The notes: generated by a model from the sequence alone, not told the origin. Positions 7,139-26,301 are shown, counted from the first letter of the stretch. The stretch: 64,000 nucleotides of DNA from a virus (IMGVR_UViG_3300050821_005690:1-64000); one strand, 5' to 3'. A program made the numbers and translations.

Positions 7139-7738
7139 ATGGCGATCCCGGTTGATGGCCGATTGACCAGCCAGAACATCTTCGCGGGTCCGTTCAACGG
7201 CACCGAGGTGATGTATGTCGTCTCGCCCGGCAATGCCGCGCAGGGCCAGAGTTTCCAGGCTACGACCGGCACCCTGGCGTCGTTCTTTTCGACCTTCCCG
7301 GCGCGTGCCCACGCTTCGGTCTTTGCCGCCGCGCCCGCGGCGCTCACTCCGGGAATCACTACGGCGCAGATGCTGGGGCTTTCCTCGGGCGCCACGATCA
7401 TCACGCCGAACGCAACCGGCCAAGTTGCGATCAGCATTGACGGCACGGTGCTGGTCGGCAGCACCACCAACGGTGCGATCATCCAATGCCGCTTTGCCAC
7501 CGGCAACGGGCCTGCCAACGGCACCAACGTGACCGGCAACGTATGCGGAGCGCCCAACTCCGGGCAGGTCTCCTATCTGGCTGGCTTGGCTACAGCGAAA
7601 ACGCCGTTCCATGTCAGCGGCCTCCTTACGGGGCTGACCCTCGGCGTGGCGATCTGGATCGACCTTTCGGTGCTCAACACCACGGGTGCGCAGGCGGTAA
7701 CGATCAGCAGCGTCACGATTGCGGCGCATGAATTTTAA
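7139..7738 (+). CDS. putative virion protein
   Basis: A/T/G-rich beta-type sequence at the end of the structural operon. Confidence 0.6.
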   Translation: MAIPVDGRLTSQNIFAGPFNGTEVMYVVSPGNAAQGQSFQATTGTLASFFSTFPARAHASVFAAAPAALTPGITTAQMLGLSSGATIITPNATGQVAISIDGTVLVGSTTNGAIIQCRFATGNGPANGTNVTGNVCGAPNSGQVSYLAGLATAKTPFHVSGLLTGLTLGVAIWIDLSVLNTTGAQAVTISSVTIAAHEF

Positions 7739-7754
7739 TTTTAGGAGGCGACCA

Positions 7755-8408
7755 ATGTTCTGCATCAAGACTGGCATGAAGAACGAGTCCGATGTGGCGA
7801 TGAAGTACGCCGCGCCTAGCGCGCTTGTCCTCACCGGCATCCAGATGGTCGAGGATCTGGAAAAGAGCGTCCCGAAGGACTGCGAAGCGATCATGTCTTT
7901 CGGCATGTGCGGCGGGTTGCGGCCGGCTGCCCCGATCGTCGGCCAGACGATTATCGCCTCTAGGCTGATCGGGCCGGACGGCGAGACTTATGAAGTCGAT
8001 CACGCCTGGAAACAGCGCCTCTTCGAGACCACGAGGTTCTTCGTCCAGCCGTACTATTCCTCCGGCAGGTACAACGAGGCGAACACCCCGGCACAGCGAG
8101 CGACGCTCTATGGCCGCACCGGCGCGTGGTGTGTGGATGATGAGAGTCTGTGGGTTGCGCGATTCGCCAAAGCGCGCAACATTCCCTTCGTGATCGCGCG
8201 CAACTGCTCGGACCAATGGGACCAGGACGTCTCGGTCACGTCCGCGATGCTGACCTCGAAGGGCGGCGTTGATTTGGTGGCGATTTTCAAGGGTGTTGTC
8301 ACGTCGCCAATCACGATGGGGCGGATCGCCCTCAGCTATGCGAAGTCACAGAGCGAACTGGAGAAGTTCGCGGAGAAAATAGCCCCGGGCTTTGGCTGGG
8401 AAAAATGA
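7755..8408 (+). CDS. PNP/MTAN-family nucleosidase, hopanoid-associated HpnG-like
   Basis: TGMKNE, IMSFGMCGGLRP, TPAQRATLY.RTGAWCVDDES, IPF..AR.CSD; AGGAGG RBS. Confidence 0.72.
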   Translation: MFCIKTGMKNESDVAMKYAAPSALVLTGIQMVEDLEKSVPKDCEAIMSFGMCGGLRPAAPIVGQTIIASRLIGPDGETYEVDHAWKQRLFETTRFFVQPYYSSGRYNEANTPAQRATLYGRTGAWCVDDESLWVARFAKARNIPFVIARNCSDQWDQDVSVTSAMLTSKGGVDLVAIFKGVVTSPITMGRIALSYAKSQSELEKFAEKIAPGFGWEK

Positions 8409-8815
8409 AAATAGGCCGTACCCTGAAATGGCTTGCTGTCCTGCTGTTGGTCTGCGGCTTGGCCATCTGTCTCGCGCTCCTGATCAGGCCAGCGTGGGCG
8501 CACGACAAGCAGCACCCAAGTCTCACCGACTGGTTCAAGTCACTGAACAATTCGCAGGGTACGCCATGCTGCGACGGCAGTGATGCCACGCGCATTGAAG
8601 ATGTAGACTGGCAGACGGTATGCGAAGCTGGCACTGGCCAGTGTCACTATCAGGTTCGTTTAGAACAGGCGTGGTGGAACGTCCCGGACGAATCCGTCAT
8701 AAAGACCCCGAACCGGGTCGGCCCCGCTCTGGTGTGGCCGATTTTCTACGGCACCAAAGGCAAAGCCGACTTCAATGTTCTCATCCGTTGTTTCATACCA
8801 GGATCAGGGGCTTAA
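8405..8815 (+). CDS. exported Cys-rich hypothetical protein
   Basis: N-terminal hydrophobic signal ending AWA-HD; PCCDGSD, W.VPD..VI..PN..G.ALVW, IRCF.PG. Confidence 0.75.
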   Translation: MKIGRTLKWLAVLLLVCGLAICLALLIRPAWAHDKQHPSLTDWFKSLNNSQGTPCCDGSDATRIEDVDWQTVCEAGTGQCHYQVRLEQAWWNVPDESVIKTPNRVGPALVWPIFYGTKGKADFNVLIRCFIPGSGA

Positions 8816-8912
8816 CAGCCCGCGTCCTTAATAAGGACACGCTTTCTTCAACTATCCGCCCTGATACTGATATGAGTGTCGAGCGCTTCAACCACCGAAA
8901 AGGTTAAGATTC

Positions 8913-9755
8913 ATGGGCGAGCTTCTCCCCCTGTCGGTTCTCAAGACCCTCTGGTCCCATGGGGATCAGCATGTGCCAGGGTTGATCGAGGGCATTGCGG
9001 CCTCAGCGCCTGCGGTGTTCGAAAAGTATGGCGTTACGACCACCTTGGAGGTTGCCCATATCATGGCGCAATTCTCCGAGGAATGTGGCGCCGGGTTGGA
9101 GATGGTCGAGAACTTGAACTATTCCGCCGAAGGATTGCGGCGAACCTTCCCGACCCATTTCACCGAGTCCATGGCCGAGCACTATGCCCACAACCCGCGC
9201 ATGATTGCCGACGTGGCCTATGGCGGGCGCATGGGCAACGCCCCGCCGCCCTCTGACGACGGCTGGAACTATCGCGGCAAGGGCCTGTCGCAATTGACCG
9301 GCAAGGCCAATTACACGCGCCTTGCGGTCGTTACCGGACTCGACGTGATCCACGACCCCGATATTCTTATTCGACCCGCCACGGCGCTCGAATGTGCCGT
9401 GGCTGATTTCGTCCGCATCTGCGGCTGCTTGCCGCTCGCCCGGCGCGACGACGTGCACGGGGTGACCCTCCATCTCAACGGGGGCTACAACGGCCTTGCG
9501 GAGCGCATACGCTGGCTTCGCGAATGGAAGGTGGCCCTGAAGCCGTTCTGGCAAACCGCACCAGCGGCCAAGCCACAGGCCTATACGCAGTCGTCAACGG
9601 GTACTCCCGTTCCCCTGAGTGGTGCGACCGATCCCCCGCCAGAAACGGCCGGCCAGGGGGTTTCCTGGGTCGGGCCGCCACCGCCGCCACCCAACCCGAG
9701 CCCGATCATGACGGCGCTGGCTAATCTCAAGGCCGAAGTCGAAAAGATCGTTTGA
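8913..9755 (+). CDS. endolysin, glycoside hydrolase family 19
   Basis: HIMAQ..EE, ENLNYSAEGL, YGGRMGN, DGWNYRGKGLSQLTGKANY, NGG.NGL.ER; Pro-rich C-terminal tail. Confidence 0.9.
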   Translation: MGELLPLSVLKTLWSHGDQHVPGLIEGIAASAPAVFEKYGVTTTLEVAHIMAQFSEECGAGLEMVENLNYSAEGLRRTFPTHFTESMAEHYAHNPRMIADVAYGGRMGNAPPPSDDGWNYRGKGLSQLTGKANYTRLAVVTGLDVIHDPDILIRPATALECAVADFVRICGCLPLARRDDVHGVTLHLNGGYNGLAERIRWLREWKVALKPFWQTAPAAKPQAYTQSSTGTPVPLSGATDPPPETAGQGVSWVGPPPPPPNPSPIMTALANLKAEVEKIV

Positions 9756-9768
9756 AAGGGAACCGTTT

Positions 9769-10341
9769 ATGACGATCAAAGGAGTGGTGCTGCTTTCCTA
9801 CGGGATGGGCGGAGCGGCGATCGAGACATGGTCGACCGGCCTTCGCCTGCTGACGCAGCGGTGCAAGGCGGCCGGCCTTGAGACCTTCGCCTCGCCGTAC
9901 AACTGGAGTCAGGTCAACGAGCTTGACGCGATCATCGCGCGGGTCCCAGCGGGCATCCCGATCGCGGTTGGCGGCTCAAGCCTGGGTGACGACAATGCGC
10001 CGGTCGTTGCGTCCCGCACCAAGCGGATCATCCGCTATCTGTTCGGGTTCCAGGACTCGATGTATGGCGTCAACGTCAAGGTGCCCGACAACGTCCAGTT
10101 CGCGGACAACATCTACAATCCATCCTGGATCCAGACCCTCGGCCTTGGTTATCGCCAGTGGAAGCGCACCACGCCCCGCTCGGACGACACCAAGACGGGA
10201 CGGCTTCGCAATATCCCGATCTATGCGCCACACCCGGACGACTGGGGGGTCGCGCAGGATATCGTGTTCTCGCGCATTCATGCGCTGATTGCGACGGCGC
10301 CGCCGCCGGTTGCGCCGATCACGGCAAGCTCGGGAGCGTAA
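9769..10341 (+). CDS. small alpha/beta-hydrolase-like protein (GxSxG)
   Basis: VLLSYGMGG, IAVGGSSLG nucleophile elbow, LFGFQDS, C-terminal His (APHPDD). Confidence 0.55.
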   Translation: MTIKGVVLLSYGMGGAAIETWSTGLRLLTQRCKAAGLETFASPYNWSQVNELDAIIARVPAGIPIAVGGSSLGDDNAPVVASRTKRIIRYLFGFQDSMYGVNVKVPDNVQFADNIYNPSWIQTLGLGYRQWKRTTPRSDDTKTGRLRNIPIYAPHPDDWGVAQDIVFSRIHALIATAPPPVAPITASSGA

Positions 10342-10343
10342 AA

Positions 10344-10604
10344 ATGGTAAACTCCGTGATATTAGCCCCGCTCGAACGGTGGGGCCTTCGCTTCGAGGGG
10401 TTCTCCGACGCGCAGATCACTCAACTCGAAGGGATCATGCCCGACATCGAGCACCTCGCGAACCTCGCCACCAAGGAGTTGCCGGCCGCCGAGAACTTGC
10501 TTAACCTCGTTGAGGCCGAGCTTCCGCGCATCAACCGCATCGTGCCGGTGATCGCGATGGCTATCCGCACCTTCAACGCCAAACAAAGGGGTTTAACGTC
10601 ATGA
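10344..10604 (+). CDS. hypothetical protein
   Basis: ATG 10344 just after the previous stop; ATGA overlap with the next gene. Confidence 0.6.
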   Translation: MVNSVILAPLERWGLRFEGFSDAQITQLEGIMPDIEHLANLATKELPAAENLLNLVEAELPRINRIVPVIAMAIRTFNAKQRGLTS

Positions 10605-11119
10605 CCACGACGCCTGCGAAGCCCGCTATCCCGGTTACTCCGCCGGCCGCGACCGGCTTGACCGCTTTCGTCCATAAGCTGGAAGTTGGGTTTGCGAAGG
10701 ACGAGCAATGGGTCGTCGCCGAGTTCACCAAGGGCTGGCAGTTATTGCAGAGCGCCGAGAAGACGGCCCAGGTGGACATAGAGAACATTTTCCATTGGAT
10801 TGCAGCGCACCAATCCACCCTCCTGGCCGCCCTCCAGGAAGCTCTCAGCGCGGCCTCGATTCTTGGGAACTTCATCCCTGGCGCCGGCCCGACCGTGGCA
10901 GCGGCCACGCTTGCGATCAACGCCGCCACCGAGGCCGTGAACGTGCTTTCAAAGTCGGTGCTCGCTGGGTCTACGCCGCTCTCAACGGCGGTCAGCGCCT
11001 ATCACGCCGTGAAAGATGCACAAACGGCGGTCAACGCGGTCCTCAAAGCAAGCACGACCAAGCCGCCGACAGTCTCTGCGGCGGCGGCCGCGGCGCCAGT
11101 GACGCCCGTGAAGTCGTAG
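10601..11119 (+). CDS. hypothetical Ala-rich protein
   Basis: Long ORF in an operon with overlapping start/stop codons. Confidence 0.7.
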   Translation: MTTTPAKPAIPVTPPAATGLTAFVHKLEVGFAKDEQWVVAEFTKGWQLLQSAEKTAQVDIENIFHWIAAHQSTLLAALQEALSAASILGNFIPGAGPTVAAATLAINAATEAVNVLSKSVLAGSTPLSTAVSAYHAVKDAQTAVNAVLKASTTKPPTVSAAAAAAPVTPVKS

Positions 11120-11151
11120 GGTAGACGCTACGCAGCTAGATTAGGTACTGT

Positions 11152-11185
11152 GAAGCCGCCCCGAATCGGGGGCGGCTTTTTCTTT
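11152..11185 (+). terminator. rho-independent terminator
   Basis: AAGCCGCCCC-GAATC-GGGGGCGGCTT followed by TTTCTTT. Confidence 0.8.
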
Positions 11186-11201
11186 GGTTCTGGGGGCGCA
11201 T

Positions 11202-11696
11202 ATGGCTGACGACGAGGTGAGGCCACAGACCTGGACTAATTCACAGCAGATCATTGCCTTTGCTGTGGTCGGCACGTTCATCGGGGTTATTTTAATCTGG
11301 CTGTTTCATCCCCCTCAGTCTTTGGACCAAGCGGCCCTCGGCATCATCAATATGCTGATCGGGGTCCTGGTCGCTAAATTTACGACTGTGGTGGACTACA
11401 CCTTTGGCTCCAGCGCAGAATCGAAGAACAAGGGCGACTCTCAAAGCCGCACTATCGACCGCCTCACGTCATCGCTCACTGGCACCGGCCCCGGCGTCGT
11501 AGCCGCTGCTAAGGCAGCGGCAGCGGAGGTTGCCCCTGCCGCTGCCGCCGTGGCCGCCCCTGCCGCTGCCGCCATGGCCGCCCCACCCGCCGCCGATGTA
11601 GCGGCACCGCCTGCAGCGGAGGTTGCCGTAGCGGAAGCGTTCGCCAAACGTGACGAAGATCACCCTGGAGGGAACAAAGATGGGTTTTCTCGCTGA
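11202..11696 (+). CDS. holin-like two-TM membrane protein with Ala/Pro repeat tail
   Basis: Two hydrophobic helices, then VVDYTFGSS..SK.K (holin-like); close to the endolysin. Confidence 0.6.
   Translation: MADDEVRPQTWTNSQQIIAFAVVGTFIGVILIWLFHPPQSLDQAALGIINMLIGVLVAKFTTVVDYTFGSSAESKNKGDSQSRTIDRLTSSLTGTGPGVVAAAKAAAAEVAPAAAAVAAPAAAAMAAPPAADVAAPPAAEVAVAEAFAKRDEDHPGGNKDGFSR
11532..11627 (+). repeat. imperfect 24-bp coding tandem repeat (about 4 copies)
   Basis: GCCCCTGCCGCTGCCGCCRTGGCC twice plus two degenerate copies, encoding AP(A/P)AAxVA units. Confidence 0.7.
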
Positions 11697-11955
11697 TCTA
11701 AAGGCGCTGTTCACAACTGCGCCGACCTACGCCCAGAAAGTGCAATATCTCGATAACAAGGCGTCGACTGTCGGCGGCAATCTCAACTGGCGCAACTCCG
11801 TCGTTGATTTCCTCAAGCTGATGGGGATGGACAGCAGCATGAGTTCGCGAGCGACGCTTGCTAAAGAGTTGGGCTATGCAGGCGAGTACACCGGCACATC
11901 CGAGCAAAACGAATGGCTCAAGCAAAACCTCATGGATCATTTGGTGCGGAATTGA
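11680..11955 (+). CDS. DUF3597-domain protein
   Basis: LNWRNSVVDFLKL.GMDSS.S.R..LAKELGY.G.....N.WL. Confidence 0.8.
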   Translation: MGFLADLKALFTTAPTYAQKVQYLDNKASTVGGNLNWRNSVVDFLKLMGMDSSMSSRATLAKELGYAGEYTGTSEQNEWLKQNLMDHLVRN

Positions 11956-12176
11956 CGGCCGAGTTCGATCCGAGGCAAGAGGCTTTGGCAGCGGTGCGCG
12001 CGGCGTTCCATGAAAACATCAAGACTGTCTCGTCCGCTACCCTGGCCAGGGCGGCGGGGGGCGAACCTGTCGATAGCGTTATGGCCCACTTTCGCCTATC
12101 TCTTCATCTCGTCTTTTCGCTCTACGAGATGCACGTTAAAGAGATCGAAAGGCTTGGTGAGGCGAGAGCGGTATGA
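11952..12176 (+). CDS. hypothetical protein
   Basis: TTG start overlapping the previous stop. Confidence 0.45.
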   Translation: MTAEFDPRQEALAAVRAAFHENIKTVSSATLARAAGGEPVDSVMAHFRLSLHLVFSLYEMHVKEIERLGEARAV

Positions 12177-12204
12177 AGGTTGAGAGGAGAAGGGGGGGCA
12201 AGCA

Positions 12205-12960
12205 ATGGTCAGGCGAGTACCAAGCGCCGACGAATCCAACGGCGGTGCTCTGCGCTATAACACTGGTGTCATGGCAGACCCGACACCGCTGACTACGCAG
12301 CAATTGCTGCGCGAGAACTTCTGGCTTCGCGAGCTTCTTGAAGCGCAACTCGGTGCGATCGAAGCTCGTATAGACGCGAGCGACAAAGCCGTCAAACTGT
12401 TGCAGGCATTTGCCGACCGGACCCCGACAACCATGGACGTGCAGCATGAGGTATTCGCGCTTCGCGAGGTTCTGTCGGAGAAGCTGGCCGGGGTAAAGAC
12501 GCAAATCTCCGAGCGCGACAACCAGGGCGACAAGGCTACCAAGGTCGTCGAGGCTGCGGTCGCCAACGCTTTTGCGGCGGCAAAGGAGGTTGTCAACAAG
12601 AGCGAGGGGCAATTCAAAGAGCAGATCAATGGGATCACTTCTCAGATCAACACCATAACGAAAAACTATGACGACAAGATCGGCGGCATCGCAAAGTCCT
12701 ATGAGGGACAGGTCGGCGACATCAAAGAGCGGCTGACCATAATCGAGAGCAAGACATCGATCAGCGATCCTTCTACGGCGATCACGCTGGCGAAGCTCGA
12801 CGCAACGGTGGCGCGGTTGACATCGACCGGGGACGTCTCCAGCGGCCGCTCGGCTGGCGCGATTGCTTTGTGGGGGATCATTTTGGGATGCCTTGGTGCT
12901 GCTGTTTCGATAGGCACTCTCATCGTCGTCGCCATGAGCGTCATGAAGGCCCATGGCTAG
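12205..12960 (+). CDS. coiled-coil protein with C-terminal TM helix (lysis-region membrane protein)
   Basis: Heptad-like helical body and a hydrophobic C-terminal segment. Confidence 0.7.
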   Translation: MVRRVPSADESNGGALRYNTGVMADPTPLTTQQLLRENFWLRELLEAQLGAIEARIDASDKAVKLLQAFADRTPTTMDVQHEVFALREVLSEKLAGVKTQISERDNQGDKATKVVEAAVANAFAAAKEVVNKSEGQFKEQINGITSQINTITKNYDDKIGGIAKSYEGQVGDIKERLTIIESKTSISDPSTAITLAKLDATVARLTSTGDVSSGRSAGAIALWGIILGCLGAAVSIGTLIVVAMSVMKAHG

Positions 12961-13226
12961 GTGACGGCGTCGCCGGGCGGCTTAGTCCGCATCTCCTGGA
13001 GAATTTCGGCCAAGGCCTGACAGGTCAAGCTCCACGTCAACTCATCCCCCCGCATCAACGCGGCCACCAGACTTCGCCGGGCATTATCTATTAGTCTGCG
13101 TTCTTCCGGCGTTGCGGGACGGTAAGGGGTCGGGTTGCGGCCCTTAAAGCACTCGTAACACAGCCCCGTCGTGTTCTTACGCTGCCGAAGCATCCTTCCG
13201 CAGCGCACGCATGCCCGTCTTCTCAT
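12957..13226 (-). CDS. small zinc-finger protein
   Basis: CVRC...CYEC; GAGGGA RBS. Confidence 0.55.
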   Translation of the reverse strand: MRRRACVRCGRMLRQRKNTTGLCYECFKGRNPTPYRPATPEERRLIDNARRSLVAALMRGDELTWSLTCQALAEILQEMRTKPPGDAVT

Positions 13227-13370
13227 CCTGCCGTCCCTCTTGCCCTCGCTTGCCGGGCCGGCTATAAATCAACGGTGGCGCCCGGACATTCGGAGCGCTG
13301 CATGAGCGTCCTCCTTGGACGTTTCCTCCCAGTAGTCTCAGACTGGGCCGCGCGCGCAGCGGCCCATTTT

Positions 13371-13604
13371 TTATTCGCCGAGCAGGGCGTTAAGGTCGCG
13401 CACGACCTCGGTGCCAAGCATCGTGAGTACGAAGTCTCGGGCAAGCGCCCCACGAGTTATATTCCGATCGCGAGCTATGCGATCGAGCGCCGCGAACTGC
13501 TCGTGGGTCAGGTGGATCGAGACGTGACGTATCTTCCCTGTGGTCACCCTGGCGTAATCACCGCGATAGGTGCTTGCCGCCCGAGAGTGTGGGGCGCTCG
13601 TCAT
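13371..13604 (-). CDS. ribbon-helix-helix (CopG-like) regulator
   Basis: VSIHLTHEQFAALDRIARDRNITRGALAR. Confidence 0.65.
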   Translation of the reverse strand: MTSAPHSRAASTYRGDYARVTTGKIRHVSIHLTHEQFAALDRIARDRNITRGALARDFVLTMLGTEVVRDLNALLGE

Positions 13605-15820: not shown

Positions 15821-16684
15821 TTAATCGTCGGCGTATTTATTTGCTGGCTGTGTGCCGACATTGTGTTTCTTTCCGTGAATTAGCGCCGGGCGCGCCCAGC
15901 GTCTTTGAAACGCACGCCAGTTAGATCCCGGCGCATGCTTCTCTTGGCTCTTAGTGTCCGGCCGCCACAGCATAGCGAACGGCGTGAACCCGATCGACAT
16001 CAAGTCGGTAAGCCGCTTTGTAGCGGCGTCGAACGTGTCCTTGGGATAACCGATCAGACAGTACGATCGCAGACGATGGGATCGAGCGGTGAAGCCTGCT
16101 GCCAGGAGCTTGCTGGCGGCAACAGCCAGAGTCTCAAACTCGTCCTGGGGATCGTAGGCAAAGAACATATTCGGCCGGGGCGTCAGGCTCGCTAGCAGAT
16201 CCACTTGGTAGTCCTGCAGCGATAGAGCTTCCAGGCCGCCGGTGAACTCGACCCTGCGCTTTTGCCGCCGTAACATTTGGAAAACCGCCTCGACGTGCGG
16301 GCGCGGGCAGGCGAGCAAGTTATCGTCGAGGATGTTCCAGGCGTCATGGATTGGCAGCAAGTTGACGGTCGGCCACATCTTGGGGACCTTGCAGAACCAG
16401 CATCGGCGCGGACAGCCCCGCGAGGTGATCGTGTAGCCGGGCTTGATGTAGCGGCCGGGGATAAATTCGAGGCTCGTGTCATTAAAGGCCACGCCGCCGA
16501 TCTTCACGGGTGCCACCGACTTCCATTGTTCGGCAAGTCCCTCGGCCCGCGCCTTGTCATAGGTGAACGTGACCGAGACGTGCACCTCGTCGGCTTCATC
16601 GAAAAATCCAGGTGGTCCGAAGCGGACAAGATCGTCGTCCGGTGTGGCCTTTGTCTTTCGCGGGAAGACGCGGATCAGTCTCAT
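15821..16684 (-). CDS. radical SAM protein
   Basis: TSRGCPRRCWFC (CxxxCxxC), LDDNLLA, F.GGLEA, YCLIGY. Confidence 0.85.
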   Translation of the reverse strand: MRLIRVFPRKTKATPDDDLVRFGPPGFFDEADEVHVSVTFTYDKARAEGLAEQWKSVAPVKIGGVAFNDTSLEFIPGRYIKPGYTITSRGCPRRCWFCKVPKMWPTVNLLPIHDAWNILDDNLLACPRPHVEAVFQMLRRQKRRVEFTGGLEALSLQDYQVDLLASLTPRPNMFFAYDPQDEFETLAVAASKLLAAGFTARSHRLRSYCLIGYPKDTFDAATKRLTDLMSIGFTPFAMLWRPDTKSQEKHAPGSNWRAFQRRWARPALIHGKKHNVGTQPANKYADD

Positions 16685-17910: not shown

Positions 17911-18357
17911 TCATAGCGAGGGCTCCCGATCCTTCGGGCGCTGAACGCGAGCGGCCTTCTTCGCAAGCCACTCGCGCTGCCGCTCGATGATTTCAACGAG
18001 GCTCAAAAACTCCTGCCGGTGCGCACCGATCAGTTTCTCGATAGCGACAAGCTCGCTCCTAAGACGGTCGCCACGATCATTGTGTCGCCGAAAATAATAT
18101 GTTCCGCGCTCCCACTCGATCTCGCGCGCGAGAGCAAGGCGGGGATCGTCGTTCCAGTCACGCCACCGCGTCGCGGCATCGGAGCACGTCATGCAGGTCA
18201 GCATGGCTGTCCTTTGTCGGCCAAGGTCCTTCAGGCGCCGGTCGTACGTTTCCCGTGTAATCACGCGGTTCGCCTCTGTGAGACCGCATTCGGTGATGTC
18301 GGCCGAGTCCCGCCATGGCAGCCTCGGCCGCAGGATGTGGTCGACCGGGTCCTTCAT
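17911..18357 (-). CDS. hypothetical protein
   Basis: ATGA overlap with the helicase gene; H..R, ECG and CMTC motifs. Confidence 0.65.
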   Translation of the reverse strand: MKDPVDHILRPRLPWRDSADITECGLTEANRVITRETYDRRLKDLGRQRTAMLTCMTCSDAATRWRDWNDDPRLALAREIEWERGTYYFRRHNDRGDRLRSELVAIEKLIGAHRQEFLSLVEIIERQREWLAKKAARVQRPKDREPSL

Positions 18358-20447
18358 GCCTCCACCCCGAAGATCGTCTGGTAGAGGTGACTGTCGTACT
18401 GCCGCCGGTACTTGCGGATCATCTTCATGGCGGCGGCAGCCTGCCGGGGCCGCAAGCTGGCCTGGGCGGCAAGCTCGCCCCCGAAGATTGTGTCCAGCTT
18501 CGAGAAGCCCACCCCGTTCTCGTAGCGAGCGTGATCCTCGTCGTAGGCCGCTACGGTCCGCAGGGCGGCGTGGATCGCGGCAATCCGCTCGGGGGTGAGG
18601 GTAGCCGCCACCTCATCCAACCGCGCTCTGCGATCGTCCTTGGCCTGCTGCTCGGCCATCTGCTCGGGAGCCAGCGGGACTACCGAGACCTCGATCTCGG
18701 GCCGCTCCTTCTCGGTGCCCTCGGTCTTCTGGTTCAGGGCCCGATCGATCACCTCCTGCTTCTGGACGACCATCTTCGCCATCCTGGCGTCCAGGCTGTC
18801 GTCGAGCACGAGGTGCTGCACCAGGACACACTCGGTCTGGCCGATCCGGTGCGCACGGTCCTCGGCTTGGCTGATCCGCGCCGGGGTCCAGTCGAGTTCC
18901 GCGAAGACCACATGGGAGCTTGCCGTCAGGGTCAGCCCCTCGCCGGCCGCCCGGATGTTGCCGACGAAGAACCGGATGTTCGGGTTGGTCTGGAAGGCGT
19001 CCTTGATACCGTCCCGCTTCTCCTGGGGCGTCTTGCCGGTGATCGAGACCACACCCTGGTCCCGGACCGCATCGCAGATCGCGTCGACGACGTCCTGGTG
19101 CCAAGCGAAGCAGAGAATTTTTCCGGTTGTCTCCTTGAGGTGCTCGATCACGTAGGGCACCTTCGCGATGGCGGTCTCGTGGCGGGCCTTGGCCATCTCC
19201 GAGAAGGCAATCCCACTTACCTCGTTCAGCGCCTTGACCGCGATCTTGTAGGCTTCCTCGTCGCCCTCGGCCTCGGCCCGCTGCTTCGCGGCGTTTGCTT
19301 GGGCGATCGCGTTCTCGGTCTTCTCGTAGACGTCCTTCTCCCGCTTGATCGCCGCCGTAATGGTCGCGTCGTCCTCGTCGTAGGTCAGCGGAACCACCTG
19401 CCGCCGCTTCGCGGGCAACTCGGTCAGCACCTCGTTCTTGAGACGCCGCACCATCACCGTCTCCCGCAGCCGCGCGTTCAGTTCGTCGAGCCGCGAGTCG
19501 CCGCTGGTGTCATAACCGAAGCCGTTGTACTGGGCTGCGCAGTAGCGCCGGGTGAAGCTCGACCAGGAACCCCACCGCTTCGGATCGAGGTTGTGCAGCA
19601 AGGGGTAGAGTTCGGCGGGCCGGTTCAGGATCGGCGTGCCGGTCAGCATCAGGCGCTTCCGCGCCGTCACCCCCGCTACGGTCACCCGCTTCTTGGTCTC
19701 CTTGTCCAGCTTGGTGCCGCCGAGCAAAGTCAAGGTCCGCTGCGCCGTGCGGGTCTTCATGTTGTGGCACTCGTCGTAGACCGCCAAGTCCCAGTCGGTG
19801 CTGGTCAGTACGGCCGCGTACCGGGTCACGATGTCGTAGTTGATCACATACCAGCCGTCCGGCTTGCCGGTGAACACCAAGCCCGGCCGGATGATGTGGA
19901 CCGGCATGTCGGCCAAGGTCTGCCACTTGTTGATTTCGTTCCGCCAGTTCGCCAGCAAGCTCGCTGGCGCAACCACCAGGATTTTCTTCGGCGCCGGCAC
20001 CATCGCATTGGCCACCGCGATGGCCTGGATGGTCTTGCCGAGTCCCATTTCATCACCGATCAGGGTGCCCGCGCGCGGCATCGCGTAGGCCACGCCGGCC
20101 TTCTGGAAGGGCATCAGGGCGAGGCCCTCGGGGATGGGGATTTCGATCGCCGCGTCGGTCGCCCGGCTGGCAGCCGCAGCCTGCTCACGATCGACCGCGC
20201 TCATGGTCGACACCCAGTGGGTCACCTCCCATCTGCCCTCGCCGTCGAAGTTGTTCTTGCCACAACCGAAGCCCGCAGCCTTCAGGAGGGGTTTGCGAGA
20301 GTTCCAAACCTCCCACCATTTATCTTTGATTTTCTCGGTAATCGGGGCGGTGCATAACTGGCGCTCGCCGAACTTGGTCATGACAATTTTGGGCTTGGAG
20401 AAGGCCAGCCCGACCTCGGTCTCCAGGCGCTCGATGGTCTCTGTCAT
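18354..20447 (-). CDS. SNF2-family (HARP/SMARCAL1-like) helicase
   Basis: DEMGLGKT, DECH, LTGTP, RRLK.EVL.ELP.K, GEGLTLT, QAEDRAHRIGQ. Confidence 0.93.
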   Translation of the reverse strand: MTETIERLETEVGLAFSKPKIVMTKFGERQLCTAPITEKIKDKWWEVWNSRKPLLKAAGFGCGKNNFDGEGRWEVTHWVSTMSAVDREQAAAASRATDAAIEIPIPEGLALMPFQKAGVAYAMPRAGTLIGDEMGLGKTIQAIAVANAMVPAPKKILVVAPASLLANWRNEINKWQTLADMPVHIIRPGLVFTGKPDGWYVINYDIVTRYAAVLTSTDWDLAVYDECHNMKTRTAQRTLTLLGGTKLDKETKKRVTVAGVTARKRLMLTGTPILNRPAELYPLLHNLDPKRWGSWSSFTRRYCAAQYNGFGYDTSGDSRLDELNARLRETVMVRRLKNEVLTELPAKRRQVVPLTYDEDDATITAAIKREKDVYEKTENAIAQANAAKQRAEAEGDEEAYKIAVKALNEVSGIAFSEMAKARHETAIAKVPYVIEHLKETTGKILCFAWHQDVVDAICDAVRDQGVVSITGKTPQEKRDGIKDAFQTNPNIRFFVGNIRAAGEGLTLTASSHVVFAELDWTPARISQAEDRAHRIGQTECVLVQHLVLDDSLDARMAKMVVQKQEVIDRALNQKTEGTEKERPEIEVSVVPLAPEQMAEQQAKDDRRARLDEVAATLTPERIAAIHAALRTVAAYDEDHARYENGVGFSKLDTIFGGELAAQASLRPRQAAAAMKMIRKYRRQYDSHLYQTIFGVEA

Positions 20448-20475
20448 TTTTCAACCCCTATGTCTTCCGGGGCTA

Positions 20476-20529
20476 AAAATATCAATCGGGAAAAACAGTG
20501 TCAAGGGGTAGAAGGGGAAAATCCGCCCC
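20476..20529 (-). promoter_or_regulatory. sigma70-like promoter for the helicase with both repeated boxes
   Basis: Minus-strand TTGACA-17 nt-TATTTT; AAAACAGTGTCA 20492-20503; GGGGAAAATCCGCCCC 20514-20529. Confidence 0.6.
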
Positions 20530-20778
20530 TTTTTTAACTGGCTTCGGCGTGGGGCACGGCTGGGCAGGGATTGGTGAGCACCTTGAACTCTTCCGGCATG
20601 ACCAGCGTCGTTTTGCAATCGCGGTGTGTGCAATAATACCAGCGCGAGTAGTAGAACGGCTGCCGCAAGTGCCTCTCACGGATTTGGTCGTGCTCGCGGA
20701 TTTGCGTCGGACGATGGCAGCGCGGGCAAGGCGGACCATATTCGCCGACGACGATGTGGTGCTTGTGTTTTTTGCTCA

Positions 20779-21120
20779 TTACAATGCAGCGGCCTTCCGC
20801 AGCATGGCCACGACCTCGGCCTTGGTTCGTCCTGGCACGTCGTTCCACAAATGGACATAGCGCGTGCTAACAAGCCCCGACAGTTTATTGCAGAGGGCGC
20901 TTCTGAGAACGTAAGAATGCGGGCACGCTAAAAACAAAGCTCGCGAGACGCAAACGGGGCCGGGCTTGTCGGGGGTGCCGGGTTCTTCTGCCGTGCCCTG
21001 GCACCAGCCCCTTTGCTCGATAAGGTCAATGGCGTCGAGGCACACTTGCGCCTGCGTCCTGACCGAGACCCAGGCAGCGGCTTGCGCGTTTGCTGGCTTG
21101 CATTGCGGGTCAAAAAACAT
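20779..21120 (-). CDS. DUF6197-like phage protein
   Basis: IEQRGWCQG...C..RAL...WND.PGRTKAEVVA.LR.AA. Confidence 0.65.
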   Translation of the reverse strand: MFFDPQCKPANAQAAAWVSVRTQAQVCLDAIDLIEQRGWCQGTAEEPGTPDKPGPVCVSRALFLACPHSYVLRSALCNKLSGLVSTRYVHLWNDVPGRTKAEVVAMLRKAAAL

Positions 21121-21877
21121 TGATCACCTCGCGCTCAACCTGATCGGACATCGGGGGCTTACTCAAAACCCCGGCACGCCAAGCGCGGCAACTCTGACTA
21201 CTTCGGCTTGCAGGCGCTCGTTCTCGTGCAACAGGTCCGAGGCCGCCTTTGATATTTCGGCCTTGTCAGCCTCAAGCCGATCGATCTCATCGGCGGCTTC
21301 CACCATCAGCTGGCTGCCGCGCAACCGCAGCCGCTCCACGAGGCTGTTCATGATACGTAGACTCCTTGGGTTATGAAGGTGTGGTACGACACCCACAGGT
21401 GCCCATGGTTATCCCAGCGCCATGCTCGCTTGTCGAGCTTCCCGCTCTCGCAGATCGCGCGGATGTCGGCGTACTGCGGAGCTTCGGGCAGGATCTTCAC
21501 CCGAGCCCATTGGCCGGGGTAATCGTCGGCTAGACTGTACTCGCTGAAGCCATCACCCATCTTTTCCTCAGTCTGGAGAAGTTGCGCATGGGGGGTCTCG
21601 CACGATAGGAATGATCCGCCAGTCAGACCCAAAATCCCCATGCCTGGAATTGATATACTCCCGAGCCTTATCCTCTGACGAGAACACAGCACGTATCCAA
21701 GGCTCATCGTTATCAGTATGAACCACCAAATACTCATATTCCATGATCACTACCTCTCGATAGGTGAGGGCTGCGCCTACCGCGCGAATTACGGTCATGG
21801 GCACAGCCCTCTAGCGGGCTTCTGATCGCTCCCACTATCGCCACCGCTTCATGAGACGGTGTGGTGGGCAGCGCCCG

Positions 21878-22042
21878 CTAACTTGTTGGCTTGGCGGGCC
21901 ATGGTCCAGTTCTAAGCACCTGCATGGCGTGCGCCGCGTTAAGGGCGGCCTGGGTGAACCGCATGGCGTCCGTTGAATCGCTTGCGGTCAAGGCCCTGTC
22001 TACGAGCTTGTGGACTTTTTCGTTATCGTTCACTTCGGTCAT
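21878..22042 (-). CDS. small protein (54 aa, DAMRFTQAALNAAHA), not in ORF track
   Basis: GGAG RBS then ATG 22042; TAG stop at 21878-21880; flanked by stem-loops. Confidence 0.65.
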   Translation of the reverse strand: MTEVNDNEKVHKLVDRALTASDSTDAMRFTQAALNAAHAMQVLRTGPWPAKPTS

Positions 22043-22491
22043 CGGGTTCTATCTCCGATAGGTGGTGGCGCTTGTTTGGTGTTTCAGCGGTGCGCCAACC
22101 TAGCCCGCCGTTACCTCACTGAACGCGACTAATTTTGATTTGGCAAACGCGCTCGCCCTCCGCGGTTGGGCGGTAATGTACGAGATGATCGTTTTCGCGC
22201 TCAGCCAAACCCTGCGCGCAAAGCTTGTCGCATTGTTCGAGCAATTGATCTGGCGGCGAGGACCACCCTTCAAAACCCGCCTCGCGCTCCGCTCGCGCGG
22301 CCATGATCAATCCCGCCAAGACCTCGTCGTCAGTCATTGAGATACCGAAGCGAAGAGGCAGCGCACACCAAGCTTGAACATCTCCCACTGGCTCATGCGC
22401 CACTGCATCCTCGTCTCCGGGTTCAGATCCTCGATGAACAATACGCCGCCCAAAAAGCGTATGCGAGGGCCGGTCGGGTGCCAAAACAGGG

Positions 22492-23058
22492 TCATGAGAC
22501 TTTCGCCTCCAGAAGCCTGCGCGCGCGATCGTGAGCGGCGCGGTAGGGCTGTACGAGCGCGCGGACGACGGTGGCTAGCTCGGCATCGTTCGGCGGCCAG
22601 TGCGGGTTGATAACGCCAGCGGCAGCCTTCCCGCAGGTCGCCTGGATGGCCCAGGCCGGGAACTTCCGCAGCACCCCGAGCGTGATCATGACCGTGGTCG
22701 CTACCGTATCGCCCTGCTGGCGCATCGACCGGAATCCGGCAAACATCGTACCCAAGCACGCCTCTAAATCTGTTCGGTCGTCCGGGCCGTAGGGTTCAAT
22801 CACGGGGTCGAGCGCCGCCTTGCGCGCCTCAATCGCATCTCGTTCCTCCGCCGACAACGGCCGGCGTATCTCGATGTCACCGTTATTTTCCCGGAAACAA
22901 ACCAGCGTCTGGAACTTCCGGTCCACTGTTGGGTCGAAGATCGGCGGCAGTTCGTCTGGATCGGGCCTCGTGTGCTTCACGAGTTTTTTCGAGGGCGTAG
23001 TCTGCGAAGGTTTTACGTGCTGCAGAACCTGCTGTACCGGATTGCCGATGGTGTCCAT
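22492..23058 (-). CDS. replication-module protein (position of lambda P / helicase loader)
   Basis: GGAGG 8 nt before ATG; L..FPAWAI..C...W.P..AEL motif; follows the initiator gene. Confidence 0.6.
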   Translation of the reverse strand: MDTIGNPVQQVLQHVKPSQTTPSKKLVKHTRPDPDELPPIFDPTVDRKFQTLVCFRENNGDIEIRRPLSAEERDAIEARKAALDPVIEPYGPDDRTDLEACLGTMFAGFRSMRQQGDTVATTVMITLGVLRKFPAWAIQATCGKAAAGVINPHWPPNDAELATVVRALVQPYRAAHDRARRLLEAKVS

Positions 23059-23809
23059 TCACCAATCCTCCCTTTTTGTCCGCCCGTCTCCGCAGGAAGC
23101 CATCGAACGTCGCGTTCCAGTCGGCCTTGCGAGCTATCTGCCGGTTCGAGTTCGCCGTCGCCCACTCACGCATCCGGTCCGCGTCGTCTTGGATTTCAAA
23201 GTCGGCCAAACCAAGGCGGTGCCCGAGTGCGATCGAACCGATGCTCGGTTGCCAGTCGGCTGGTAGCGTGGCCCCCCGGTTCCGAGGTTCCTTTTTCGAT
23301 GGCGACTCCTGGCGCGCGCTCGCCCCCCCGGAGGGGGGTAGGGGGGTTCTTTCTTTCTTTCCTTCTTTATCTAAATCTGAGTCTAGAATCTGCATTGCAA
23401 CCGCATGCGTCTGCAATGCGGATGGTATGCGGCCCGCATGCCCGTTTTGTTGAATCTGTTGAGCTTTTTCCCATCTTGCGCGAGCTGCCTTTTCAGCCGC
23501 CAATTTTTTGGCCACAATTTGGTTTTCGCGCTCCTCTAAAAGAGCGTTTGCGATCGGGTTGAAATAACCCTTATCTATCAACAAAAGGCGGTTGCAGGCG
23601 CATAGCGTATGCAATGCGTTCGCAGTCACGCGCTTTGCAAGCCCTGTGCGCACCGCAATGGCGTCGACGCTGTCCGGACAGCAGGTGCCATTCTCATAGA
23701 TGCGTAGGAGGACGATCAGGTAGACGAGCTTCTCGGGCGCTGGCATGCCGGCGAGGGCCCCAAGGAGTTTTGTGGGAAAGCATTTGAACCACGGGAGCTT
23801 GTCTGCCAT
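22883..23809 (-). CDS. replication initiator, DUF1376/YdaU-like with DnaT-like C-terminus
   Basis: LPWFK.FP...L...M...E..VY..LL..YE N-terminus; LPADWQPS...K.DW.ATF C-terminus. Confidence 0.75.
   Translation of the reverse strand: MADKLPWFKCFPTKLLGALAGMPAPEKLVYLIVLLRIYENGTCCPDSVDAIAVRTGLAKRVTANALHTLCACNRLLLIDKGYFNPIANALLEERENQIVAKKLAAEKAARARWEKAQQIQQNGHAGRIPSALQTHAVAMQILDSDLDKEGKKERTPLPPSGGASARQESPSKKEPRNRGATLPADWQPSIGSIALGHRLGLADFEIQDDADRMREWATANSNRQIARKADWNATFDGFLRRRADKKGGLVNGHHRQSGTAGSAARKTFADYALEKTREAHEARSRRTAADLRPNSGPEVPDAGLFPGK
23345..23640. other. probable replication origin inside the initiator gene
   Basis: Pyrimidine/AT-rich tract 23347-23390 next to repeated GCAATGCG/GCATGC/TATGC units. 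Confidence 0.5.
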
Positions 23810-24041
23810 GGGCGTTCCTCCGCCTTGTGTGCGTCACGCTTTGTCCCCGCTATCCTTGTTCCCCCACAGGATTTCTGAAGCGGGTCGCGACTCAAACGTC
23901 GCCAGTAGATCCCTCCATGATCGGGCGGTTGCCCGCAAGCCGCGTGCTTCGGCTATTGCGATTCGTTGTTTAATGTCACGGATGGCTGCGGTCTTCTGGG
24001 GTTCCGTCATGATGCCATCTTAGAGGCGAGCGGACTGACTC

Positions 24042-24761
24042 TTAGCCTCCTCGCACTCGTTCCATGAAAGCAGATTCGCAACCAGGGTGCAGCCAGCGCA
24101 GGAAACTCCCGACGAGAATCTCGCGCTCAGTGCCGTCGTGCGGCTTGTTGCATTGGTGGCAAGTGCGGACGGCTGGCGAAAGTGTGTCGATTGTGCTGAC
24201 TTCGGGAGGATAGATCGTAAATCTTTTGGCGTTGGCGACGTTCGCCATGATTTCGGTAATCGGCACTTTCCGTGAGATGGATCGGTTTGGTTGGTGATTG
24301 TCATTGCGCTCCCATCGTTCCTCGCCTTGCTTCCAAAACCAGATTCGTAAAGGTTGGAATGGAATCCACACACAGTCGAGACAAGTAACCTTTCTCCAGC
24401 TTTCAGCGGAAAGATCAGAAACGTCTGCGTGGCAGACAAATAAGACTGTCGCCTTGCTTGGTTCATCTAGATCAATCCATCCGCGCTTTTCCTTTCCAGG
24501 GACAGAGCACGACCATGTTTCAAGATTGATTTTTTCGGCAGGCCCTCCTTTTCGCAGGCCCCGGATGATCTTCTCGTCAATGCTGTGCTCCGGCTTGCCG
24601 TCTTTAGTGCGCCTCAAGGACACGTCGACATGAAGGCGCTGCATCGAATGATCGCCTGGGAATCTTTCGACTATCCACCCCCGAAGCCGGTAAAATGGAT
24701 CAAGGAACTTTCCCGCGATCTGCTTTTGCCACTCGTCGTCTCGCACAAACTCGCGTATCAT
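24042..24761 (-). CDS. PD-(D/E)xK nuclease-like protein
   Basis: MQRLHVD...SIDEK...NLETWS...GW; ATGA overlap with the MT-A70 gene. Confidence 0.55.
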   Translation of the reverse strand: MIREFVRDDEWQKQIAGKFLDPFYRLRGWIVERFPGDHSMQRLHVDVSLRRTKDGKPEHSIDEKIIRGLRKGGPAEKINLETWSCSVPGKEKRGWIDLDEPSKATVLFVCHADVSDLSAESWRKVTCLDCVWIPFQPLRIWFWKQGEERWERNDNHQPNRSISRKVPITEIMANVANAKRFTIYPPEVSTIDTLSPAVRTCHQCNKPHDGTEREILVGSFLRWLHPGCESAFMERVRGG

Positions 24762-25768
24762 TCGGCGGCCTTCGCTTGCGTCTCTGCCCCCCAAGCTGCC
24801 CACCCATCGCGGGAAGTGCCCCGACGAAATAGCTCTATCTTTCTGGCGTCAGGATACATGCGTTCAACAATTTGGTGGAAGACTTCCGGCTTTGCCGAGT
24901 GCTCACCGCGAGGAGCCTCAACCACACTGTCCGGTAGACTTTCCGGTGCGGGGGCTGGATGATCTCCGCGTCGACATATCAGCAAAATCTCGTGCCGCTG
25001 CCGCACATACTTGCCGAGCCCTATCGAGGGCTTCACCCAAACCATCTGCGTGCGGTAGGCAAAGCCCCACGCCTCTGAGGTCTTCAGCGCCATTTCGATC
25101 ATCGACGGTGTCGCCCACAAAAACAGCATCGCCTGATCGTGCGCGATTTCGCTTACCGGCAATGCGAGAATGTCGGCAAACTTCATTGTCGGGTAGTGAT
25201 TTTCAATCGAACGATCACTCTTGCCAAACTCGTCGTCCCACGGGGGGTCGGCGAGGATCAAAGAGAACTTGCCAAGGTTTTTGGCGTTCAACGCGACCTT
25301 CTCAACGCGCTCGTTAACACCTTGCTGCTGTACCGATACCCGCTCCGCCCGAGCAGCAATCTTCGCAGCCTCTTCGCCGCTGAGTCTTGGGGAATTTTCC
25401 CCAGAGCCGCCTTTGTTTTTATTAGCTTTTTTGGAGTCTCCTGGGGAATTTTCCCCAAGGTCCTGCGAAACCGTCTTGTGATCAGCACCAAGGGTTTTGC
25501 CTATCGCCCTGGTACTGGCCGCTGGCTGTAATTGTTTGATGCGTTTGGCAATGCGCTTGCGATCCTCGGCGATGGCGCGGAATCGCTCTAAGTTGATGCT
25601 GCTGAGAAACTCATTGATGTCCTTGAAGCCAGCACCGCACTTCTTCCAATCATTTCCAGCTATCAAACTCTCTAGCCGCTGAAAAGCGCGCTCCAGCGTG
25701 TAGCCGGCAACGTGCAAACCCTCTTGCAGCTCGCCATAGAGTTGGTCGGGGAAAATTTTTGCAGGCAT
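24758..25768 (-). CDS. MT-A70 family N6-adenine methyltransferase with N-terminal HTH
   Basis: ILADPPW, HYPTM, LFLWAT, WGF.Y....WVK, R..HE.LLI, HSAKP, KIELF.R; HTH STRAIGKTLGADHKTVSQDL. Confidence 0.9.
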   Translation of the reverse strand: MPAKIFPDQLYGELQEGLHVAGYTLERAFQRLESLIAGNDWKKCGAGFKDINEFLSSINLERFRAIAEDRKRIAKRIKQLQPAASTRAIGKTLGADHKTVSQDLGENSPGDSKKANKNKGGSGENSPRLSGEEAAKIAARAERVSVQQQGVNERVEKVALNAKNLGKFSLILADPPWDDEFGKSDRSIENHYPTMKFADILALPVSEIAHDQAMLFLWATPSMIEMALKTSEAWGFAYRTQMVWVKPSIGLGKYVRQRHEILLICRRGDHPAPAPESLPDSVVEAPRGEHSAKPEVFHQIVERMYPDARKIELFRRGTSRDGWAAWGAETQAKAAE

Positions 25769-25815
25769 AAGTCCTCCCATTGAGTCGGGGTCGGGGAACA
25801 TTTTCCCTGCCAGGA

Positions 25816-26301
25816 CTAGCGCGAGTCCGTTATGCTGTCCACAGTCGCCTTGTCAAAAAGAGGTCCGTAGTCGATCAGGGCCGGATTCGCCGTCAAGGGG
25901 ATGATCTCAATCCGTAGCCGGGGCCGCGTGGAATAGAGTTTGAAGGCCTCAGCCCAGACGATTTGCGCATCGTCGTGCCAGACGATTTTGTTCAGTGCAT
26001 CGCAGCCTATCTTCAAAATGTTGTCGTAATCCGGCTTGCTCGTCGGTCGAATGGTGCCAACCAGGGCGGCTTGGCGTTCCTTTATCGACCAGGACTTGGG
26101 TACGCGCAGGTAGGCGGTCACCCTAACCCGCAGAGGGCCGTCCAGCGGCTTTTTCCCGCGCATGGCTTGTAAGGCCATGTAGCCCAAAGCCTGCTCGTAG
26201 GCCGCTGTTTTGGCTGGCGTGTAGGTGTGCGGGCCGCCCTTGGAGGTAAACCGAGGACGGCCCTTTGCGACTGGATCGCCGTCGAGTTCGACGACAATCA
26301 T
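25816..26301 (-). CDS. rusA: RusA-family Holliday junction resolvase
   Basis: P.AKGRPRF, YTP.KT..YE, KPD.DNI.K..DALN..VW.DD.QIV. Confidence 0.9.
   Translation of the reverse strand: MIVVELDGDPVAKGRPRFTSKGGPHTYTPAKTAAYEQALGYMALQAMRGKKPLDGPLRVRVTAYLRVPKSWSIKERQAALVGTIRPTSKPDYDNILKIGCDALNKIVWHDDAQIVWAEAFKLYSTRPRLRIEIIPLTANPALIDYGPLFDKATVDSITDSR

Follow-up and report, generated by a model that had tools for sequence, protein, structure and literature searches.

An HpnG-related nucleosidase and a predicted small serine hydrolase of the GSSLG family beside the endolysin gene of an uncultivated soil phage

Does a nucleosidase related to the hopanoid enzyme HpnG, encoded ahead of the endolysin gene of a phage, act together with a small hydrolase encoded behind that endolysin on the envelope of the host? 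This question is raised by ten co-oriented and closely spaced open reading frames (ORFs) on the + strand at positions 7755-12960 of the virus IMGVR_UViG_3300050821_005690. The source record in IMG/VR has 102,449 bp and is rated complete by CheckV; its first 64 kb, which we call the window, were analyzed. A preliminary description of this DNA had proposed that the nucleosidase alters the hopanoids of a Bradyrhizobium host and that the hydrolase removes esters from its outer-membrane lipid at lysis. Our analysis points to another answer, namely that the region is the part of the late genes next to the endolysin in an uncultivated soil phage of 102 kb, and that it carries two accessory enzymes from undescribed and largely viral families; taken jointly over all its parts, we regard this explanation as about evenly balanced between right and wrong. 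In the sequencing-run search, DNA of the window was present in two soil-metagenome runs, and no RNA run was among the matches.

The nucleosidase gene (7755-8408) begins with an ATG that is preceded, at a distance of 5 nucleotides, by an AGGAGG ribosome-binding site. Its product contains the motifs SFGMCGGL, VDDES and RNCSD and reaches 34.5 bits with PNP_UDP_1 (PF01048), above the gathering cut-off of 25.1. With the HpnG model TIGR03468 it obtains 93 bits, which is below the curated equivalog cut-off of 187.1, and with the NCBIfam model NF004079 for 5'-methylthioadenosine/S-adenosylhomocysteine (MTA/SAH) nucleosidases it obtains 15.9 bits, below a cut-off of 169. On TIGR03468 a prophage relative (L017) scores 124.9 bits and the chromosomal HpnG homologs of alphaproteobacterial genomes score 150–240 bits. 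Because of these latter scores, and because canonical HpnG genes lie at most 1 kb from hpnH in three genomes (G002, G004 and G005), the collected chromosomal HpnGs can be taken as genuine hopanoid genes.

For the careful phylogenetic tree, which was calculated with IQ-TREE under a mixture model, 62 rows were used, 26 of them canonical HpnGs; L038 and L039 were left out, the latter being an 'outgroup' fragment that falls among the HpnGs in a quick tree. The phage protein is placed in a clade of 34 rows with a support of 100/99 and a branch length of 0.58, inside which none of the 26 canonical rows is found, and 21 of the 34 rows form a viral core (support 100/97). We refer to this group as the IDDES clade, after a motif discussed below. 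The position of the root is uncertain because the outgroups sit on very long branches, so that the clade may be a sister group of HpnG or may have been derived from within it.

Judged from these comparisons of sequences, the protein is nearest to HpnG among the curated families yet is not HpnG. The identity with HpnG was rejected on four counts, which are the cut-off, the clade, the neighborhood of hpnH and the VDMES motif. The term HpnG-like used in the preliminary description is therefore justified in so far as the protein is closer to HpnG than to MTA/SAH nucleosidases (93 versus 16 bits), but it goes too far for a protein that scores below the cut-off and stands in a separate clade, outside the hpnH-linked one. 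Common to both are the NP-I/MTAN fold, a similar length, a glycine loop of the form SFG-x-GG-L, a catalytic glutamate in the N-terminal part and the R-x-x-S-D acid motif, whereas the phage clade differs in its IDDES motif, in a polar stretch (SSGxFNxANTPxQR) that is conserved throughout the clade and missing from HpnG, and in being carried by phages of 40–61% guanine-cytosine (GC) content. No linkage of the phage gene to hpnH or shc was found, the sole radical-SAM-like match being one of 19.6 bits at a distance of 8 kb. This match concerns the N-terminal part of a 287-aa ORF on the - strand (15821-16684); it is sub-threshold, and no Pfam family was matched by the ORF at E ≤ 0.001.

The family seems to be a rare and mobile one. 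A profile search of 5.8 billion proteins yielded 27 clusters at 90% identity, and the wider relatives form a continuum among the 1.84 billion representatives of a library, with 59 of them at E ≤ 1e-30 and 2208 at E ≤ 1e-10. Relatives were absent from 50,697 GenBank phages (tblastn), a comparison with the PDB sequences by phmmer gave chance matches only, and a scan of viral contigs found nothing with the single protein and three loci with the profile. Among 301 genomes searched in the family of G001, one carries a phage-type copy; the carrier is G001 itself, and the copy lies in a prophage. The genomic contexts vary widely. In a T4-like contig of 40% GC (L002) the gene lies between a late sigma factor gene and genes for a GNAT acetyltransferase and SbcCD, of which the acetyltransferase gene (L002:7730-8161) follows it directly. 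In a further viral contig (L003) it comes directly after a terminase homolog, and in a metagenome contig (L054) it is located downstream of the terminase gene with three small ORFs in between. In a 120-kb phage it lies in the neck/head module between two genes for homing endonucleases (L004:6243-9271), which suggests that it arrived there as mobile cargo. Finally, in a prophage of a Xanthobacteraceae metagenome-assembled genome (MAG) it follows genes for an RlpA-like protein, a homolog of the Cys-rich protein encoded at 8405-8815 of the window and an M15 peptidase (L005). Since the contexts vary, since the phage-type copy was found in a prophage in one of 301 genomes and since none was found in the GenBank phages, the nucleosidase is best regarded as a mobile accessory gene of phages. 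Its tie to lysis is partial: the gene is adjacent to GSSLG genes in two deep subclades, close to wall hydrolase genes in two loci and located elsewhere in three to four other phages.

What this enzyme may cleave can be approached from its predicted structure. The AlphaFold2 (AF2) model has a predicted local distance difference test (pLDDT) score of 93.7, and its best matches among solved structures in a Foldseek search are MTANs, with an E-value of 8.6e-12, template-modelling scores of 0.6–0.67 and an identity of 12–16%; PNP structures were matched as well. In the profile alignment to the MTAN structures, E130 and D153 of the phage protein correspond to Glu174 and Asp197 and D129 takes the position of Met173. 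The clade retains the N-terminal catalytic glutamate, the glycine loop and the glutamate and aspartate aligned to Glu174 and Asp197, so that the equivalents of MTAN Glu12, Glu174, Arg193, Ser196 and Asp197 are all kept. Compared with MtnN/Pfs (PDB 1jys and 4qez), which provide the best structural matches and whose Glu174, Arg193, Ser196 and Asp197 align with residues of the phage protein, the differences are the low identity, the low score on the MTA/SAH nucleosidase model and the aspartate at the position of Met173. Met173 of MTAN lines the ribose/5'-alkylthio site. The canonical HpnG rows read VDMES here, and three other NP-I-type outgroup rows that were aligned also have a methionine, whereas the viral clade reads IDDE(S/T) throughout and the protein of the window VDDES; in MTAN, Met173 has been described as a residue of the ligand pocket (PMC9788832).

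We therefore read the protein as a predicted adenine-type N-ribosyl hydrolase whose 5' pocket would have turned polar. Such a pocket argues against a hopane-linked substrate, albeit without proving the point. The enzyme may cleave an adenosine that is substituted at its 5' position with a polar or charged group, for instance SAH, S-adenosylmethionine (SAM) or a related soluble nucleoside, and the lipid adenosylhopane would not be among its substrates. In the IDDES nucleosidases we appear to see an offshoot of an enzyme of lipid biosynthesis that recurs in phages and in which the substrate pocket has been re-tooled. Knowledge of its substrate might uncover a phage strategy not described before, be it in SAM or nucleoside metabolism or in counter-defense. 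A link to the ATP nucleosidases among defense effectors was dropped, as PADLOC gave no match for the nucleosidase, the hydrolase or the Cys-rich protein.

The gene might also have nothing to do with lysis. It could be an auxiliary gene of a housekeeping type, a moron inserted at a hot spot, whose product clears SAH, MTA or 5'-deoxyadenosine so that the SAM-dependent enzymes of the phage go on working, or depletes SAM as a measure against restriction, and this is the alternative which survives best, although we still hold it to be distinctly less probable than the explanation given at the outset. In its favor are the conserved catalytic residues of an adenine nucleosidase of the hydrolytic type, the differing position of the gene between phages and the presence of an MT-A70 methyltransferase gene in the same phage (24758-25801, - strand); a family search for N6_N4 methyltransferases found none in the phage. 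The relatives bear the automatic label 'adenosylhomocysteine nucleosidase' at JGI, but labels of this kind are not evidence. The MTAN model, with its 15.9 bits, argues against such a role, as does the weakness of the radical-SAM-like match. Also against it are the recurrent neighbors of the gene, namely a GSSLG gene in each of the two main subclades into which the viral core divides, and wall hydrolase genes in L005.

The second enzyme, encoded at 9769-10341, was not assigned to any family by Pfam, PHROG or NCBIfam. Its AF2 model (pLDDT 87.7) resembles 2qjw with a Z-score of 14.0 and a root-mean-square deviation of 3.0 over 151 residues in VIA-align, and the top 50 matches in this comparison are without exception alpha/beta hydrolases, namely esterases, lipases or thioesterases; Foldseek gave weaker matches at about E 1e-3. 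In the model, Ser71 of the GSSLG motif lies in the turn of a strand-turn-helix arrangement between strand 65-70 and helix 76-82, as in a nucleophile elbow; the place of His155, behind the last strand, is the expected one. The model thus gives a confident alpha/beta-hydrolase fold, in minimal form, and the protein can be described as a predicted small serine hydrolase. The preliminary description had recognized an alpha/beta-hydrolase-like protein from its GxSxG motif, and this assignment is borne out by the fold and by the conserved serine and histidine. The family comprises 35 clusters; its profile gave chance-level matches only with the PDB sequences, and tblastn found no relatives in the 50,697 GenBank phages.

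The evidence for a role of this protein in lysis comes from its partners. A viral contig of 42.6% GC contains a single ORF of 337 aa with an N-terminal GH108 domain and a C-terminal GSSLG domain (L044:4476-5489), in which the GH108 part obtains 102.5 bits with Pfam and matches the endolysin family phrog_315 at 3e-42. The same architecture is found in P0213 (385 aa), which is 59% identical to the protein of the window, and both fusions retain Ser71, His155 and Asp158. In the window itself, the GSSLG gene begins 13 nucleotides past the gene for the GH19 lysin. Elsewhere, a GH25-like protein with a DPBB domain is encoded upstream of the GSSLG gene (L052), DPBB proteins are encoded at a distance of 1.7 kb (L047), or the gene is flanked by those for a homolog of the Cys-rich protein, a phrog_9990 membrane protein and a PG_binding_1 protein (L045). 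Structural neighbors in the Atlas include bacterial LysM fusions, which we regard as a lead only. In P0214 and P0215 (377-382 aa), the latter with 55 member sequences, the protein continues beyond the GSSLG domain with a long C-terminal part that contains hydrophobic segments of a membrane-like kind.

Because of the GH108 fusions and of the GH19, GH25-like and RlpA-like wall enzymes in its neighborhood, a role of the GSSLG protein as an accessory lysis esterase is plausible, as far as sequences and gene order can tell. It would work together with glycan-cleaving wall enzymes in the breakdown of the envelope. As an esterase it may preferentially act on the O-acetyl group of N-acetylmuramic acid (MurNAc), with an ester of an outer-membrane lipid as the second choice. 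The removal of O-acetyl groups is ranked above the cleavage of lipids because all catalytic partners identified cut the glycan strand and because neither lysozymes nor lytic transglycosylases can cut where MurNAc is O-acetylated (PMC6174289, PMC1199599). Ape1 of Neisseria and Campylobacter offers a parallel, as the removal of the 6-O-acetyl group of MurNAc, which frees the substrate for muramidases and lytic transglycosylases (PMC1199599, PMC6174289), is what we propose for the phage protein too; Ape1 has an SGNH/GDSL fold while the GSSLG protein is modeled as an alpha/beta hydrolase, so that the likeness would be one of proposed function only.

The comparison with LysB of the mycobacteriophages D29 and Ms6, which the preliminary description had drawn, is reasonable with regard to a second, esterase-type lysis enzyme, since the linkage to muralytic enzymes extends to gene fusions. 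Both are encoded beside an endolysin in the lysis region and share the alpha/beta-hydrolase fold and the GxSxG nucleophile. However, there is no detectable sequence relationship between the two, the GSSLG protein matches neither a cutinase-type Pfam family nor a lysin B PHROG, it is much smaller (about 170 aa), its partners cleave glycans, and its phages have relatives of an apparently Gram-negative, alphaproteobacterial type, without mycolyl-arabinogalactan. The N-terminus of LysB binds peptidoglycan in some members (PMC8309991). If the GSSLG protein is indeed an active esterase that aids muramidases, it would represent a new class of accessory lysis enzymes in phages of Gram-negative-type hosts, which could act either by unmasking peptidoglycan that is O-acetylated or on a lipid ester, and engineered lysins might profit from it as an add-on.

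The protein could also be without a catalytic role in lysis and serve as a wall- or membrane-binding module, or it could be an unrelated accessory enzyme, such as a thioesterase or a lactonase, that was captured beside endolysin genes. The C-terminal place in the GH108 fusions is the usual one for binding domains, no Pfam or PHROG family is matched, and some loci have no recognizable lysin nearby, all of which would fit such a view. The conservation of the candidate active-site residues speaks against it. In an alignment of nine sequences which includes the fusion proteins, G69-x-S71-L-G, GFQxS, H155-P-x-D158 and Q163-D164 are all invariant, and in an alignment of 21 family members Ser71, His155 and Asp164 are conserved in at least 90% and Asp158 in all. 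In addition, the endolysin PHROG match of the L044 fusion covers residues 1-164, that is, it ends ahead of the GSSLG domain. We consider a non-catalytic or unrelated function unlikely for these reasons.

Several points weigh against the reading of the two enzymes favored here. The role given to the exchange of methionine for aspartate is taken from the alignment with MTAN and from general knowledge of NP-I active sites. A hopanoid-related substrate would still be conceivable, because the nearest characterized relative of the nucleosidase is HpnG and because the lineage that bears the prophage makes extended hopanoids (hpnG, hpnH). With respect to the GSSLG protein, the acid of the candidate Ser-His-Asp triad is located outside the canonical loop after beta7, and two loci (L046 and L054) have the gene in the vicinity of the terminase gene and not of a recognized lysin. 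Furthermore, to our knowledge the known esterases for O-acetylated peptidoglycan are SGNH enzymes and not alpha/beta hydrolases.

In the window the nucleosidase and GSSLG genes stand on either side of the Cys-rich and endolysin genes, and in L054/L055, which represent a second and divergent lineage, they are directly adjacent. As the nucleosidase of the window and that of L054 stand on opposite sides of the deepest split within the viral core, the pairing is either old or recurrent, and for two rare families it is notable. The linkage assumed in the preliminary description can accordingly be upheld for this adjacency and for the association of GSSLG with lysins, and has to be given up as a general rule for the nucleosidase, the position of which varies between phages.

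It is against this background that the hopanoid model has to be judged, according to which the nucleosidase acts as an HpnG on adenosylhopane, the esterase strips ester-linked hopanoid or acyl chains from lipid A, and the two together weaken a hopanoid-rich outer membrane at lysis and so replace spanins. HpnG is indeed the closest family, the phage clade roots next to or within the HpnGs, the MAG with the L005 prophage encodes an hpnG and an hpnH of its own, the two enzyme genes are adjacent in a second lineage, and no spanin or lipobox candidate was found in 7600-13400, which is weak evidence of absence because the scan used a simple pattern; the preliminary description had likewise seen no spanin pair. 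These observations are outweighed by the score below the cut-off, by the separate clade and by the aspartate that replaces the pocket methionine clade-wide and is a poor fit to a hopane-linked C5'. Relatives of the nucleosidase are encoded among DNA-metabolism genes in the 40% GC T4-like contig, or between homing endonucleases in a structural module; the nucleosidase has no export signal, and the turnover of a biosynthetic product would be slow in comparison with lysis. The esterase is partnered by wall enzymes that cleave glycans and not by lipid enzymes, and nothing connects it with hopanoid-lipid A. As to the host, Bradyrhizobium had been assumed. The DNA stems from a soil metagenome for which no host is named, and the nearest cellular copy is the one in a prophage of the Xanthobacteraceae MAG. 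We thus find no reason to maintain that the phage alters the hopanoids of its host, and regard the model as very improbable. Least probable of all is the more general proposal that the nucleosidase, the Cys-rich protein and the GSSLG protein form a conserved phage module which, together with the endolysin, enzymatically dismantles some part of the envelope in hosts of an alphaproteobacterial type, e.g. an ester linked to a hopanoid or a nucleoside (hopanoid-lipid A would be one), in place of spanins.

The arrangement of the remaining genes is in line with a late block around the endolysin. The upstream neighbor of the block is an SU10-type adaptor gene, which puts the block at the end of the structural module. 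All six of the co-oriented genes named in the preliminary description were found on the + strand with the motifs quoted there. The Cys-rich gene (8405-8815) overlaps the stop of the nucleosidase gene with its start by 4 nucleotides, and it is followed by the endolysin gene (8913-9755), the GSSLG gene, a small ORF of 86 aa (10344-10604), which is called on ORF packing and has a weak HHH_2 match only, and the gene for an Ala-rich helical protein of 172 aa (10601-11119). Behind the latter, an intrinsic-terminator-like hairpin (11152-11179) with a stem of 11 bp, 8 of them GC pairs, and a subsequent T-run divides this endolysin block from the genes for a two-transmembrane protein, a DUF3597 protein and a tail-anchored coiled-coil protein, all of which lie downstream of it. 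Given the close packing, the 4-nucleotide overlap and the hairpin, the genes for the nucleosidase, the Cys-rich protein, the endolysin and the GSSLG protein and the two small genes look like a single transcription unit, and in the window one transcript probably covers both the nucleosidase gene and the endolysin gene.

The endolysin has a Pro-rich C-terminal tail and matches the endolysin family phrog_181 at 7.5e-50 and the chitinase family phrog_14712 at 2.3e-10. With the Pfam GH19 model (PF00182) it obtains 15.5 bits, below the cut-off of 25.5. On the strength of the PHROG profiles we assign it as a GH19-type lysin despite the sub-threshold Pfam score, so that the earlier designation as a GH19 endolysin agrees with the former and lacks the backing of the latter. 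Its DNA matches a gene of Sinorhizobium phage phi2LM21 that is annotated as 'chitinase'.

The Cys-rich protein was expected to be exported, and this is corroborated by a signal peptide, predicted as a single N-terminal hydrophobic helix, ahead of a Cys-rich domain; the protein may be secreted or signal-anchored. It has no match in Pfam, PHROG or NCBIfam and was ruled out as an o-spanin since a proper lipobox is lacking. Homologs are encoded beside GSSLG genes or wall hydrolases in four loci (L005:5367-5921; L045:3720-4112; L049:5282-5590, - strand; L056:2909-3286), and in L045, L049 and L056 they accompany GSSLG specifically. The family can be recognized by the motifs WF...G.G..CC...DVDW...VPD...PN..G.A.VWP...IRCF.PG.G. 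Homologs of the 172-aa Ala-rich protein, with an identity of 54–61%, are encoded 0.6–1.1 kb downstream of GSSLG in L043 and L052.

Past the hairpin, the protein encoded at 11184-11696 has two predicted transmembrane helices and matches phrog_9990, a family of unknown function, as its sole PHROG family; a homolog is encoded downstream of GSSLG in L045. It may be called holin-like for its two-helix topology, and the label, a putative one that the preliminary description had also used, refers to this topology only. The DUF3597 gene (11650-11955), which had also been recognized there, obtains 75.7 bits with PF12200 (cut-off 29.8), and its product shows weak PHROG matches to portions of endolysin and peptidase families.

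On the - strand, an early or replication block (18354-26301) comprises genes for an SNF2-type helicase (18354-20447), the MT-A70 methyltransferase mentioned above and a RusA resolvase (25816-26301). The last gene of the + strand region (12205-12960) encodes a coiled-coil-like protein of 251 aa with one C-terminal transmembrane helix as an anchor; it matches phrog_937 ('hemolysin') weakly, at an E-value of 0.001, and may be a lysis-associated membrane protein.

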